Source: Escherichia coli
Lineage (GTDB): Bacteria; Pseudomonadota; Gammaproteobacteria; Enterobacterales; Enterobacteriaceae
Assembly (NCBI RefSeq): GCF_022846255.1
Contig: NZ_AP025682.1
Reading direction: 5' to 3' (one strand)
DNA: 64,000 nt
The notes beneath the pieces were generated by a model. That model searched no databases, was not told where the DNA came from, and worked only from the letters and a program-made list of their open reading frames with translations. Both the position numbers and the translations under genes were made by a program. Numbering within the stretch: position 1 is the stretch's first letter; every line of letters begins with the position of its first letter. This document shows positions 31,696 to 64,000 of the stretch, one piece after another.

Positions 31696-31877
31696 TGTAG
31701 GCCGGATAAGGCGTTCACGCCGCATCCGGCGACAGGAGCCAAATGCCGGATGCAACGCTGGCGCGTTTTATCCGGCCTACAATGAGCTCAACATACTGAT
31801 TTGTATGGTTTTGTAGGCCGGATAAGGCGTTCAAGCCGCATCCGGCGACAGGAACTAAATGCCGGATGCGTCGCTGG
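31696..31877. repeat. BIME cluster: about four REP units in alternating orientation (two tandem ~115-bp units)
   Basis: Repeated TGTAGGCCGGATAAGGCGTTCA(C/A)GCCGCATCCGGCGACAGGA and inverted GCCGGATGC...CCGGCCTACA copies. Confidence 0.85.
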
Positions 31878-37994: not shown

Positions 37995-38945
37995 ATGCGT
38001 GTGTTACTGGCTCCGATGGAGGGTGTACTTGACTCTCTGGTGCGGGAATTACTGACCGAAGTTAACGACTACGATCTGTGCATCACCGAGTTTGTCCGCG
38101 TGGTGGATCAACTGCTGCCAGTAAAAGTCTTTCATCGCATTTGCCCTGAGCTACAAAATGCCAGCCGGACACCATCCGGTACGCTGGTGCGCGTGCAGTT
38201 GTTAGGGCAGTTCCCACAGTGGCTGGCAGAGAATGCCGCCCGTGCGGTGGAGTTAGGTTCCTGGGGCGTGGATCTTAACTGCGGCTGCCCGTCGAAAACG
38301 GTTAACGGTAGCGGTGGTGGGGCAACGTTACTGAAAGATCCTGAACTCATCTACCAGGGTGCAAAAGCGATGCGCGAAGCTGTACCGGCGCATTTGCCTG
38401 TCAGCGTAAAAGTGCGTCTGGGCTGGGACAGCGGTGAGAAGAAATTTGAAATCGCCGATGCGGTGAAACAGGCTGGCGCTACGGAGCTGGTAGTACATGG
38501 GCGGACAAAAGAGCAGGGTTACCGCGCGGAACATATTGACTGGCAGGCGATTGGCGAGATTCGCCAGCGGCTTAATATTCCGGTGATTGCCAACGGTGAA
38601 ATCTGGGACAGGCAGAGTGCGCAACAATGCATGGCGATCAGCGGCTGCGACGCAGTGATGATTGGTCGCGGGGCGCTCAATATTCCCAACCTGAGCCGGG
38701 TAGTAAAATATAACGAACCGCGAATGCCGTGGCCGGAGGTGGTTGCTTTGCTGCAAAAATATACCCGTCTGGAAAAGCAGGGCGATACCGGGTTATATCA
38801 CGTTGCGCGGATTAAACAGTGGTTGAGTTATTTGCGTAAAGAATACGATGAAGCAACGGAATTATTTCAGCATGTTCGGGTGTTGAATAATTCCCCTGAT
38901 ATTGCAAGGGCTATTCAGGCAATTGATATCGATAAGCTGCGATAA
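37995..38945 (+). CDS. dusC: tRNA-dihydrouridine synthase C
   Basis: Track ORF 37929..38945 trimmed to [13 protein letters not shown]...; Dus TIM-barrel with catalytic Cys region (LNCGCP). Confidence 0.88.
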
Positions 38946-39002
38946 TAGTGGAATCGCAGTTTATCAGAGACAATGAATCGCTTATTCAGCTTCATCATCT
39001 TG

Positions 39003-39240
39003 TTGCGCTCCTTTCATGAGCTAAGCCACATATTGCCACTGGCGCAAGGAGCGCGCAGGGGGAGGACAATCGCCTCCTCCCCCTGCACCCCCGGGCTCTG
39101 GCGAACAAAATCGCCGCTGCGCGGTACCTTCAGCTTATCCCCTTCGTCTACCGGGTCGGGCGCGAGGTAACGTCCTTGTAAGACGCGCCCTCAGCCCACA
39201 TCCATGTGGGCTGCCCCGGCCTTCGGGGAACGCTTCAGCG
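39003..39240. other. GC-rich intergenic element with four successive hairpins (unclassified repeat or structured RNA)
   Basis: GCGCTCCTT…AAGGAGCGC; GGGGGAGGacaatcgcCTCCTCCCC; GCCCACATccATGTGGGC; CCCCGgccttCGGGG. No convincing ORF. Confidence 0.4.
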
Positions 39241-39332
39241 ATTTTGACGCCACCAACACCGGAGCTGTTTGCAAATCAAGTACACAAAATATCTAGTTCC
39301 TGACCTGACAACTTATATGCCATATCTGATTT

Positions 39333-39416
39333 TTAAAATATCATCTTAAATACGCCAGTCACCACCAGTAGCCCAATCAGGAAAATAATCAATACAGCCC
39401 AGAGTATAATTTTCAT
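39333..39416 (-). CDS. yohP: 27-aa single-TM small membrane protein
   Basis: ATG…TAA ORF translating to MKIILWAVLIIFLIGLLVVTGVFKMIF; below the ORF-track size cutoff. Confidence 0.7.
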   Translation of the reverse strand: MKIILWAVLIIFLIGLLVVTGVFKMIF

Positions 39417-39639
39417 TGGCGTTCCTTTATTTGTGAGTGCTGAATAAGTATAGGAAAAAACGAAGCCCTTTGCCGTTATCCATAAACGATTAAGATAAAT
39501 CGGAAGATATCATTCACTTAGTGTATATTTTTCTGGATATGTCGTTTTATTGCTACTGATGTATTGCCACGCGAAACTAAAAAATATATCGCAACACACG
39601 GTAATCTCCGCGCACCTTTTCTTACCTGATTATTCCCCC

Positions 39640-41076
39640 ATGAATCGTGATTCCTTTTATCCCGCCATCGCCTGTTTTCCGCTGTTACTGATGCTGGCCG
39701 GGTGTGCGCCTATGCATGAAACCCGCCAGGCGTTAAGCCAGCAAACGCCCGCTGCACAAGTTGACACCGCATTACCCACGGCGCTGAAAAATGGTTGGCC
39801 AGACAGCCAATGGTGGCTGGAGTATCACGATAATCAACTCACTTCCTTAATTAACAATGCACTACAGAACGCACCGGATATGCAGGTGGCTGAACAGCGC
39901 ATTCAGCTAGCTGAAGCCCAGGCGAAGGCAATTGCTACTCAGGATGGTCCGCAGATCGACTTTTCTGCGGATATGGAGCGGCAAAAAATGTCGGCAGAAG
40001 GCTTAATGGGGCCGTTTGCTCTGAACGATCCGGCCGCAGGTACGACCGGTCCGTGGTACACCAACGGAACTTTTGGCTTAACGGCGGGCTGGCATCTCGA
40101 TATCTGGGGAAAGAATCGGGCGGAGGTTACTGCCCGCCTGGGTACGGTTAAAGCACGGGCGGCGGAACGCGAGCAAACCCGCCAATTGCTGGCTGGCAGC
40201 GTAGCCCGCCTGTACTGGGAGTGGCAAACCCAGGCGGCGTTAAACACGGTCTTGCAGCAAATAGAAAAAGAGCAGAACACCATTATCGCGACCGATCGCC
40301 AGCTATATCAGAACGGGATTACTTCTTCAGTTGAAGGTGTGGAAACCGATATTAATGCCAGCAAAACCCGGCAGCAGCTCAACGATGTCGCGGGGAAAAT
40401 GAAAATTATTGAGGCACGGTTAAGCGCACTTACAAATAACCAGACAAAGTCATTGAAGCTTAAACCGGTCGCGTTGCCGAAAGTGGCAAGCCAGCTTCCT
40501 GATGAACTGGGGTACTCCTTACTGGCCCGGCGGGCAGATTTGCAGGCGGCGCACTGGTACGTTGAGTCATCGCTAAGCACCATTGATGCGGCAAAAGCGG
40601 CATTTTATCCTGACATCAACCTGATGGCCTTCCTGCAACAGGATGCGTTGCACTTAAGCGATCTGTTCCGTCATTCCGCGCAGCAAATGGGCGTTACGGC
40701 AGGCCTGACGCTACCCATTTTCGATAGTGGTCGTCTTAACGCCAATCTCGATATCGCAAAAGCCGAAAGCAACTTGTCTATCGCCAGCTACAACAAAGCG
40801 GTGGTTGAAGCGGTGAATGACGTGGCGCGGGCAGCCAGTCAGGTTCAGACACTTGCGGAGAAAAACCAGCATCAGGCGCAAATTGAGCGCGATGCCTTGC
40901 GTGTGGTAGGTCTTGCGCAGGCGCGCTTTAACGCGGGCATCATTGCTGGTTCCCGCGTCAGCGAAGCCAGAATCCCGGCGCTGCGTGAGCGGGCCAATGG
41001 CCTGTTATTGCAAGGGCAGTGGCTGGATGCTTCCATTCAACTCACTGGTGCGTTGGGCGGGGGTTACAAACGCTGA
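39640..41076 (+). CDS. mdtQ: Outer-membrane efflux lipoprotein (OMF/TolC-like, NodT family); appears intact here
   Basis: 478 aa from ATG 39640; lipobox LLMLAGC; no internal stop or frameshift in this sequence. Confidence 0.8.
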   Translation: MNRDSFYPAIACFPLLLMLAGCAPMHETRQALSQQTPAAQVDTALPTALKNGWPDSQWWLEYHDNQLTSLINNALQNAPDMQVAEQRIQLAEAQAKAIATQDGPQIDFSADMERQKMSAEGLMGPFALNDPAAGTTGPWYTNGTFGLTAGWHLDIWGKNRAEVTARLGTVKARAAEREQTRQLLAGSVARLYWEWQTQAALNTVLQQIEKEQNTIIATDRQLYQNGITSSVEGVETDINASKTRQQLNDVAGKMKIIEARLSALTNNQTKSLKLKPVALPKVASQLPDELGYSLLARRADLQAAHWYVESSLSTIDAAKAAFYPDINLMAFLQQDALHLSDLFRHSAQQMGVTAGLTLPIFDSGRLNANLDIAKAESNLSIASYNKAVVEAVNDVARAASQVQTLAEKNQHQAQIERDALRVVGLAQARFNAGIIAGSRVSEARIPALRERANGLLLQGQWLDASIQLTGALGGGYKR

Positions 41077-43355: not shown

Positions 43356-43528
43356 AAAGTTCTTTTGCGCTGCATTGCTGGCGTAAATGTCAGCAATGCA
43401 GCATTTCCTCACGATTCTTCTTTGACGATCGCACTTTTTGCTCGTTATGATGGCGTCGCTAGCCTCAGTAAATCCTTACTCCGGCGGTGCGCAACCCGTG
43501 CGCGTGAACCACTATCTGAATGCTCATC

Positions 43529-63745: not shown

Positions 63746-63861
63746 ATATTCATCCCTGAAATGTATTAATGAAATAAACGATATTTTACGCGCAATAAAT
63801 GTTTGCCGCATTAGTTGTTTGAGCGAAAAATATCTGGAAAGCAGATCACAGTAAATAAAAA

Positions 63862-63892
63862 AACCTGCTGGTGAGGCAGGTTCTTTTATTTA
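63862..63892. terminator. Bidirectional rho-independent terminator upstream of yehL
   Basis: AACCTGC-tggtgag-GCAGGTT flanked by an A-run (5') and CTTTTATTT (3'). Confidence 0.7.
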
Positions 63893-64000
63893 CTATTTTC
63901 AGGCCTAACACCACAGCCTGTGCAACATCGTGTTCCAACGAACGAATTATAACCACGGCTGGACCCCGTTGCAATTAAGATAATGAGATTTATAATCCAG

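Follow-up and report, generated by a model that had tools for sequence, protein, structure and literature searches.

The spacer between dusC and yohP

The DNA analysed here is a 64,000-nt stretch of Escherichia coli (contig NZ_AP025682.1; further referred to as the window), in which the dusC and yohP genes are separated by a 387-bp spacer that houses a GC-rich, multi-hairpin element, most probably the known Replication Risk Sequence (RRS) RRS-dusC, also listed as TRIP1. In the annotation of strain E2865, which is 100% identical to the window across this region, dusC ends at position 38945 on the plus strand and yohP is located at 39333–39416 on the minus strand, which agrees with the placement of the element between both genes in a preliminary description made from the sequence alone. 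The span of 39003–39240 given in that description captured a real but somewhat larger element, as homology to other copies extends from 38985 to 39294, and all four palindromes that it listed were recovered at their positions by an inverted-repeat search and direct reading (Table 1). A fifth, longer pairing that had been missed was revealed by the inverted-repeat search and closes the core of the element (i.e., closing stem P1).

The spacer was also rightly described as non-coding, since its sole open reading frames (ORFs), of 65 and 37 aa, are of low complexity, and a small-protein reading of the element was rejected on the same grounds. Similarly discarded was a 27-aa frame facing outward at the end of the element (38915–38998, minus strand; with start AAGGAG-N9-ATGATG), which enters dusC and is not conserved in other copies.

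Several nested units could be delineated within the element. Per-genome alignments indicated that homology to other copies stops just past the terminal hairpin (38985–38991), and the block shared with Klebsiella copies measures 222–224 bp and includes both the core and the published G-quadruplex (G4) tract. In the core, the closing stem surrounds two hairpins with the minus-strand loops CAUGGAUG and CAAGGACG, resembling those of the TwoAYGGAY RNA family, and the loop of hairpin 2 reads ACAGGGAYG or ACAUGGAUG in most relatives. The pairing within palindrome 4 is not that of the consensus fold of the family (on the G-rich strand).

Table 1. Parts of the dusC-yohP element (window positions; palindromes are numbered in order of position).
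Feature	Position	Strand	Basis and remarks
Full repeat, TRIP1/RRS-dusC with lower-identity edges	38985..39294	- (G-rich "RRS-G4" strand)	blastn to K-12 copies
Probable counterpart of the 222-bp RRS from the literature	39040..39262	-	inferred from length and content
Universal 139-bp core	39107..39245	-	minimal shared block, blastn against 120 family copies
Terminal hairpin, stem GCGCTCCTT/AAGGAGCGC (palindrome 1)	39005..39054 (arms 39005-39013 / 39046-39054)		9/9 complementary; 7-9-bp conserved covarying stem, 32-nt loop variable between copies
G-rich hairpin, perfect 12-bp arms GCAGGGGGAGGA/TCCTCCCCCTGC (palindrome 2)	39055..39086 (arms 39055-39066 / 39075-39086)		12/12 complementary; minus-strand arm contributes to G4 tract
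Predicted G4 tract GGGGGTGCAGGGGGAGGAGG	39073..39092	-	regex match; K-12 counterpart GGGGGTGCAGGGGGCGGCGG
Direct repeat CCCCGGGCTCTGGCGAAC, copy 1	39089..39106		partner copy 39214-39231
Closing stem P1, arm 1	39106..39121		pairs with 39231-39246; compensatory changes in 5/8 pairs of helix 1
Hairpin 2, GGGCGCG...CGCGCCC	39157..39190		minus-strand loop ACAAGGACG; helices 6-8 of consensus
Hairpin 1, perfect 10-bp arms CAGCCCACAT/ATGTGGGCTG (palindrome 3)	39192..39213 (arms 39192-39201 / 39204-39213)		10/10 complementary; minus-strand loop plus closing pair CAUGGAUG
Palindrome 4, CCCCG-gcctt-CGGGG	39214-39228		direct reading of sequence
Direct repeat CCCCGGGCTCTGGCGAAC, copy 2	39214..39231		also contains palindrome 4
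Closing stem P1, arm 2	39231..39246		inverted repeat and covariation

The element corresponds to RRS-dusC of E. coli K-12

By blastn, the element was 88.6% identical to the K-12 copy at dusC over 272 bp (window positions 38985–39256) and 90.8% identical to the K-12 copy at lysO over 304 bp (38991–39294), i.e., it is homologous to the 222-bp repeat of K-12, and it is situated beside dusC with flanks that are collinear with those of K-12. The published G4 motif (i.e., GGGGGTGCAGGGGGCGGCGG) is present exactly in both K-12 copies, and a variant with two substitutions (i.e., GGGGGTGCAGGGGGAGGAGG) was found in the window. The G4Hunter scores of this predicted G4 were 1.92 for the window and 1.84 for K-12, and a four-G3 motif was absent from both strands. 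In the G-rich hairpin, both arm differences with K-12 were compensatory (GGAGGA/TCCTCC here vs. GGCGGC/GCCGCC in K-12). Moreover, single-stranded DNA (ssDNA) folding of the 39040–39262 region yielded –68.2 kcal/mol (z-score of –6.7) and –64.2 kcal/mol (z-score of –6.2) for the two strands. The element therefore resembles the K-12 RRS (Pham et al. 2023, 2024; 2026 preprint) in its locus, its hairpins, its identity of ~89–91%, its predicted G4 tract with both substitutions compensated in the hairpin, and its stable predicted ssDNA folds on both strands. Since the locus is the same, identity is ~90%, and a two-substitution variant of the G4 motif is present, we consider the element to be RRS-dusC, i.e., an already known element that acts as DNA and not as a gene or RNA, with a probability of roughly 85%.

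RRS-dusC and RRS-lysO have been described as 222-bp GC-rich repeats that are located ~650 kb on either side of dif (PMC10592627). RRS are equated there with TRIP1, first listed by Rudd in 1999 according to that paper, and, as far as this citing account goes, TRIP1 denotes the same three-locus family of K-12, with two full copies and one partial copy. In the present analysis, the third K-12 copy was placed at yegH-asmA. As grounds for its refutation, the preliminary description had named a catalogued intergenic repeat family that the element clearly matches, and TRIP1/RRS is such a family. The names RSA, BEE95, and Box C, which were considered as candidate identities, could not be confirmed, as no usable literature description was found for them, and they are superseded by TRIP1/RRS.

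At both K-12 loci, the G4-bearing strand is the template of the lagging strand, and in vitro the RRS blocked Pol I, II, and IV and hampered Pol III (PMC10287960, PMC10592627, PMC13308219). RecA/SSB-coated lagging-strand gaps of up to 2 kb were found to arise at any site, given the native orientation of the RRS (PMC10287960, PMC10592627, PMC13308219), and deletion of both RRS from K-12 was obtained only with a compensating 200-kb amplification (PMC10592627). According to the mechanism published for K-12, unwinding by the replisome would free a single strand that adopts a very stable multi-hairpin fold, with a G4-prone tract on the G-rich strand. This fold would halt the lagging-strand polymerase, leaving an incomplete Okazaki fragment with a gap that can reach ~2 kb and becomes coated with SSB and RecA. 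The RRS authors proposed that such a gap might relieve topological stress at the borders of the Ter domain. As cited in PMC10592627, the only other bacterial sequence reported as a G4 gap trigger is the pilE-associated G4 of Neisseria gonorrhoeae, which differs from the RRS in being unrelated in sequence and role (i.e., pilin antigenic variation) and in not being a dispersed repeat.

The window copy is reversed relative to K-12

When aligned to K-12, the dusC and yohP flanks were collinear (99–100% identity), with the 272-bp element between them aligning plus/minus. The window copy thus differs from its K-12 counterpart in being reversed relative to the flanking genes and the replication fork, and in being ~11% diverged although its flanks are nearly identical. 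Sequence of lower identity to the left and right of the element seems to have been turned with it, as judged from reading the sequences and not from a scored alignment. On this reading, the inversion would take in nearly the whole spacer, starting at the last two or three codons of dusC and reaching to within a few bases of the stop codon of yohP. Since the last dusC codons differ with the spacer allele (...IDIDKLR* at window positions 38931–38945 vs. ...IDIEKL* in K-12), the allele boundary was placed inside the 3′ end of dusC.

The plus strand of the window displayed a positive GC skew in 13 out of 15 8-kb intervals, which is consistent with K-12 synteny and indicates that the fork proceeds toward higher coordinates, with the plus strand as the lagging-strand template. 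Given the inversion of the element, its G-rich strand is the leading-strand template and its C-rich strand the lagging-strand template, so that the native K-12 arrangement, in which the G4 strand is the lagging-strand template, does not hold in the window.

Engineered inversion of the RRS in K-12 abolished the in vivo RecA/SSB peaks and altered global supercoiling (PMC10287960, PMC10592627, PMC13308219). In a purified system (2026 work), a gap was formed at nearly every encounter when the G strand was on the lagging template, and at ~66% of encounters with the C strand. Judging from these K-12 inversion and in vitro C-strand data, the element should trigger gaps less often in the strain of the window, where the partner RRS-lysO probably supplies the native-orientation activity of the lineage. 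The RRS papers call the position and sequence of these elements highly conserved and make no mention of natural orientation variants (PMC10287960, PMC10592627, PMC13308219).

Reversed and shortened alleles in the E. coli population

A blastn survey of 5426 complete E. coli genomes returned 18,856 places. Between 1 and 10 of these were found per genome, the median being 3 across 5425 genomes, in line with the less common repeat family that the preliminary description had suggested. K-12 carries copies at aqpZ-lysO and dusC-yohP and a partial third one at yegH-asmA, and the window carries one copy. At the dusC locus, the K-12-type junction was found in 3410 genomes (63%) and the reversed, window-type junction in 2001 (37%), among which O157:H7 and O26 strains, and these two alleles jointly cover nearly all genomes. 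At the lysO locus, the K-12-type junction with a full RRS was found in 4121 genomes (76%), and a short allele in 1294 (24%). This short allele is inverted compared to K-12 and has lost the whole core, i.e., the 125 bp that separate the direct repeats (CCCCGGSCT). In the aqpZ-lysO spacer of locus L001 (3001–3140), the short allele was seen to retain the G-rich hairpin behind a G8 run.

Different combinations of these alleles were encountered. Both copies have the native orientation in K-12. In genome NZ_OL790696.1, the dusC copy is reversed and matches the window at 100% identity, and the lysO copy is full and native, so that this genome has its two RRS as direct repeats and not as inverted repeats like K-12. 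Strain M-17 carries a short, reversed lysO copy together with a reversed dusC copy, the latter being 99.4% identical and collinear with the window over 700 bp. A chimeric query with one 74-nt segment of each variant allele matched 2943 places in 2361 genomes, from which it follows that ~580 genomes carry both variant alleles. All four combinations of a native or reversed dusC copy with a full or short-reversed lysO copy are present in natural E. coli, three of them having been seen directly.

With regard to the third locus, the yegH-asmA copy (loci L122, 1501–1737, and L123, 1501–2002) is partial in K-12, full-length in only 41 genomes, and strain-dependent in its orientation.

A modular family in the Enterobacteriaceae

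A scan with a sequence pattern over one genome per species retrieved 113 loci, nearly all of them from Enterobacteriaceae and with several copies per genome. The genera concerned were Escherichia, Citrobacter, Enterobacter, Klebsiella, Raoultella, Leclercia, Silvania, Atlantibacter, Kluyvera, Pseudescherichia, and Pseudocitrobacter. As the search pattern itself prescribed loop 1 and two short flanking words, their invariance among the fetched loci is uninformative. On the G-rich strand, the modules are ordered from the core over GGAGCCCGGGGGT and the G-rich hairpin to the terminal hairpin. The loop of this terminal hairpin (window positions 39014–39045; loci L038–L044) is variable even inside one genome, and its stem is conserved and covarying. 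A guide-like role of this hypervariable loop (cf. bridge RNA and omega RNA) was considered and rejected, as no recombinase or nuclease gene was associated with it.

Klebsiella harbors tandem copies, as in Klebsiella pneumoniae locus L006, where two copies (1123–1276 and 1560–1713) are located 437 bp apart, each with the same modules after it. Enterobacter sp. ENT03 (L038, 1863–2500, and six further loci) carries a unit of ~640 bp in at least seven copies of ~92% identity, which appears to combine a pair of oppositely oriented family members that enclose a second variable patch. In K. pneumoniae ATCC 13883 (L113–L118), the flanks of all six copies showed a negative GC skew on the G-rich strand, opposite to K-12, although these flanks are short and noisy. 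Copies with 81–90% identity to the window element over 144–308 bp also turned up in assemblies of unrelated organisms, i.e., in one assigned to Bacillus sp. (L110, a 583-bp contig) and in metagenome-assembled genomes (MAGs) of Sporobacter (L095), Desulfacinum (L014), and a member of the Proteobacteria (L023). Given that these contigs are short or break off inside the locus, contamination is the likely explanation.

Compared with dinucleotide-preserving shuffles, the window copy folded far better on both strands, as ssDNA (see above) and as RNA. RNA folding of a 286-nt stretch of the window yielded –146 kcal/mol for the minus strand (z-score of –6.25) and –129 kcal/mol for the plus strand (z-score of –5.18), which was equalled by none of 200 shuffles. 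The RNAalifold consensus of 54 non-redundant cores contained 35 pairs in 9 helices, with 98.0% of cells being paired versus 86.3% in shuffles, and only 37–45% when partners were slid by 1–3 columns. Double-sided changes were present at 21 pairs versus 13.7 in shuffles, and the covariation score amounted to 0.340 versus 0.126, with the observed values being reached by 0 out of 500 shuffles. The covariation analysis that the preliminary description had put forward, as run on the family cores, thus revealed strong covariation of the core fold.

This consensus fold comprises a long closing stem and a helix of CYGARG with CYGARG, whose tandem G·A has covarying pairs on either side. It also contains a small hairpin (CCGC/GCGG), together with two hairpins whose loops read CAUGGAUG and CA(G/U/A)GGAYG. 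In hairpin 1 (helix 5), compensatory changes were seen in 4/6 pairs, with 99.4% of cells paired. Wobbles on the G-rich strand were strongly skewed, as G·T occurred 31 times (at 18 positions) versus 6 times for A·C (at 4 positions; p = 4e-5), which indicates that the G-rich strand is the strand selected to fold. This folding bias fits the published, stronger block by the G strand.

RNA-level and cis-regulatory readings

The preliminary description had suggested a structured small RNA (sRNA), a protein-binding region, or an attenuator or 3′-end processing signal, and none of these readings was supported. Specifically, the relevant strand lacked promoter- or terminator-like sites, the 113 family copies displayed no orientation bias relative to their neighbouring genes, and no CsrA cross-linking and immunoprecipitation (CLIP) signal was assigned to the genes beside the element in K-12. 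The published role in replication at the DNA level equally argues against an RNA or attenuator function.

The Rfam comparison raised in that description returned no family at threshold, and the miRNA and snoRNA matches were dismissed as noise from GC-rich hairpins. It did yield a sub-threshold match of 27.7 bits (vs. a gathering score of 43) to RF01731 (TwoAYGGAY) on the minus strand at 39108–39247, with an E-value of 0.054 when corrected for 4227 families, or ~1e-5 for a single family. RF01731 was the top Rfam match for four E. coli copies (27.7–33.1 bits; the other three scoring 30.6–33.1), with strand and register shared by all four, and the Klebsiella and Citrobacter copies gave no match to it at E<1. 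As for the AYGGAY loops themselves, loop 1 reads AUGGAU (as set by the search pattern), and loop 2 reads AAGGAC in the window, mostly AGGGAY in relatives, and AUGGAU in Leclercia and Silvania. On this sequence evidence, the resemblance to TwoAYGGAY is probably real, though below the curated threshold.

TwoAYGGAY RNAs are described as having a pair of AYGGAY loops and a closing stem of often very large size, and their Psychromonas members are multi-copy with the same loops, i.e., ACAUGGAUGU and ACAGGGACGU (Weinberg et al. 2010). The element shares with this family the long closing stem, two hairpin loops with A-Y/R-GGA-Y, the multi-copy state, and the occurrence in Gammaproteobacteria, and the RF01731 match falls on the strand with the G·U wobbles. 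It differs from TwoAYGGAY in that the enterobacterial core adds the tandem G·A helix and the CCGC/GCGG hairpin, next to the G-rich and terminal hairpins.

This likeness might in turn indicate that the element is (also) a structured RNA, i.e., an enterobacterial TwoAYGGAY relative, either in a 3′ untranslated region (3′UTR) or independent, whose CA-N-GGA-Y-G loops bind a dimeric protein such as CsrA. The RF01731 matches, the loops and multi-copy state shared with the Psychromonas members, the often very large closing stem of TwoAYGGAY RNAs, and the covarying fold with G·U favored on the matching strand all point in this direction, and the CsrA consensus RUACARGGAUGU obtained by systematic evolution of ligands by exponential enrichment (SELEX) resembles the loops of the element. 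However, an identical covariation is expected from ssDNA folding, all RF01731 scores remained below 43, and the relevant strand has no promoter-like or terminator-like sites. Moreover, where copies of the family are situated between tandem genes, the strand that folds was sense in 13 cases and antisense in 15, and it is antisense to both genes at K-12 aqpZ-lysO. As the K-12 CsrA CLIP tables show no peak (with "No" for dusC, asmA, and ybjE), a CsrA sponge is retained as a low-probability rival only, and we regard the structured-RNA reading as a whole as improbable.

Even less credible is a cis-acting terminator, attenuator, or 3′-end processing signal for dusC or yohP, which we consider highly improbable. 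The position between convergent genes would suit such a signal, and its GC-rich hairpins might halt read-through or impede exonucleases, like REP elements do. Nevertheless, no T-run follows any of the hairpins, strains differ in the orientation of the element while the flanking genes remain unchanged save for the last two or three dusC codons, and the same element is present in unrelated spacers. Likewise, among family copies with both neighbours called, 46 were situated in convergent and 5 in divergent spacers, and this avoidance of promoters without an orientation bias toward transcription argues against a cis-acting mRNA element.

Dispersed-repeat behavior and its bearing on the RRS model

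In terms of known repeats, the element is akin to REP/BIME and ERIC (IRU) in being dispersed, palindromic, and mosaic, and in occupying spacers at gene 3′ ends in both orientations. It differs from them in lacking sequence similarity, in being much less abundant in E. coli, and in having a longer unit and another fold, and while BIME-2 binds gyrase, the RRS stalls polymerases. In agreement with the view in the preliminary description that it is not REP, an Rfam scan gave no REP match within the element.

Several observations weigh against the reading of the element as an orientation-specific RRS. With 1–10 places per E. coli genome and 13 in one K. pneumoniae chromosome, it looks more like a dispersed repeat than a positioned element. 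The ~580 genomes with both variant alleles are without a full-length RRS in K-12 orientation at dusC or lysO, and this, together with the commonness of the reversed orientation, would be unexpected if an orientation-specific block of the lagging strand were selected. Furthermore, the G-rich strand was the local G-skewed strand in 32 out of 72 Enterobacteriaceae family loci, i.e., without bias, albeit that skew is a noisy proxy. Finally, high G4 propensity was found in only 47 out of 105 distinct copies, and the G4 is perhaps not the conserved feature. Four G3+ tracts were present in 23 of these copies, and a G-rich hairpin of at least 8 bp was kept in 98 by compensatory changes, so that, from the sequences, hairpins look more conserved than the G4 across the family.

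An alternative is that the element is a selfish or neutral dispersed repeat, resembling BIMEs or miniature inverted-repeat transposable elements (MITEs), which spreads, inverts, and decays in 3′-end spacers, the K-12 replication effects then being a by-product of its stable fold. The variable copy number (including the seven ~640-bp units of ENT03), the preference for convergent spacers, the strain-dependent orientation at all three E. coli loci, and the missing orientation bias versus local GC skew fit such a repeat, as do the modular, mosaic build, whose copies have alternative ends and can be tandem or composite, and the internal deletion between direct repeats. On the other hand, the covariation and the strand-specific wobble bias reveal selection on the fold (although a mobile element might need this fold too), and the compensating amplification that accompanied the K-12 double deletion (PMC10592627) also counts against this reading. 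The element also lacks terminal inverted repeats past the closing stem, its homology ending at a hairpin and not at the matching termini of a MITE, and no target duplication was found, although no systematic search for one was made. Neither was a recurrent transposase family seen near the copies. A transposon was likewise rejected, since the 113 copies have no recurrent neighbouring protein family and the highest-ranked "families" proved to be spurious ORFs within the repeat itself. None of 50,697 phage records matched the element, and a plasmid-borne origin was discarded because all "plasmid" matches were typed non-mobilizable, the largest being chromosome-sized and others carrying the chromosomal lysO-aqpZ region; these records also extend the family to Klebsiella and Citrobacter. 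The selfish-repeat explanation thus stays viable beside the published function, but we deem it rather unlikely.

Returning to RRS-dusC, we tentatively propose, at somewhat less than even odds, that the K-12 RRS are two members of a dispersed, modular, TwoAYGGAY-like family of Enterobacteriaceae whose orientation changes, in which the selected property would be the covarying multi-hairpin fold of the G strand and not the G4 or a fixed orientation toward the fork. About 11% of complete genomes are without a native full-length RRS at either locus. If true, the model of an orientation-specific, conditionally essential relief valve for topological stress would need revision, in that either strand might suffice, the function might differ, or the element might be largely selfish. 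The natural reversal, the way in which alleles are combined in the population, and the fold shared across the family go beyond the RRS papers cited here and bear directly on the mechanism. The natural variants constitute ready strains for testing the effect of orientation, the sufficiency of the C strand, and the role of hairpins versus the G4, and the family-wide covariation offers a structural model for the design of compensatory mutants.

Other features in the window

Apart from the element, the window contains a match to the OrzO-P antitoxin sRNA at 63857–63932 on the minus strand (99.9 bits vs. a gathering score of 60), which we take to be a zor-orz type I toxin-antitoxin locus that is absent from K-12. 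A naRNA4 (CssrE) match of 85.8 bits is located outside the element at 31700–31777 on the plus strand, and as the naRNA4 family is presumably REP-derived, it would bear out the REP sequences that the preliminary description had mentioned elsewhere in the window. A Peptidase-S11 RNA motif (72.8 bits) was found at 43444–43524 on the plus strand, and the same motif is present beside pbpG in K-12 (L004, 876–956). Finally, mdtQ, which is a pseudogene in K-12 MG1655, is an intact long ORF in the window (39550–41076, plus strand), annotated as a 478-aa protein in E2865.

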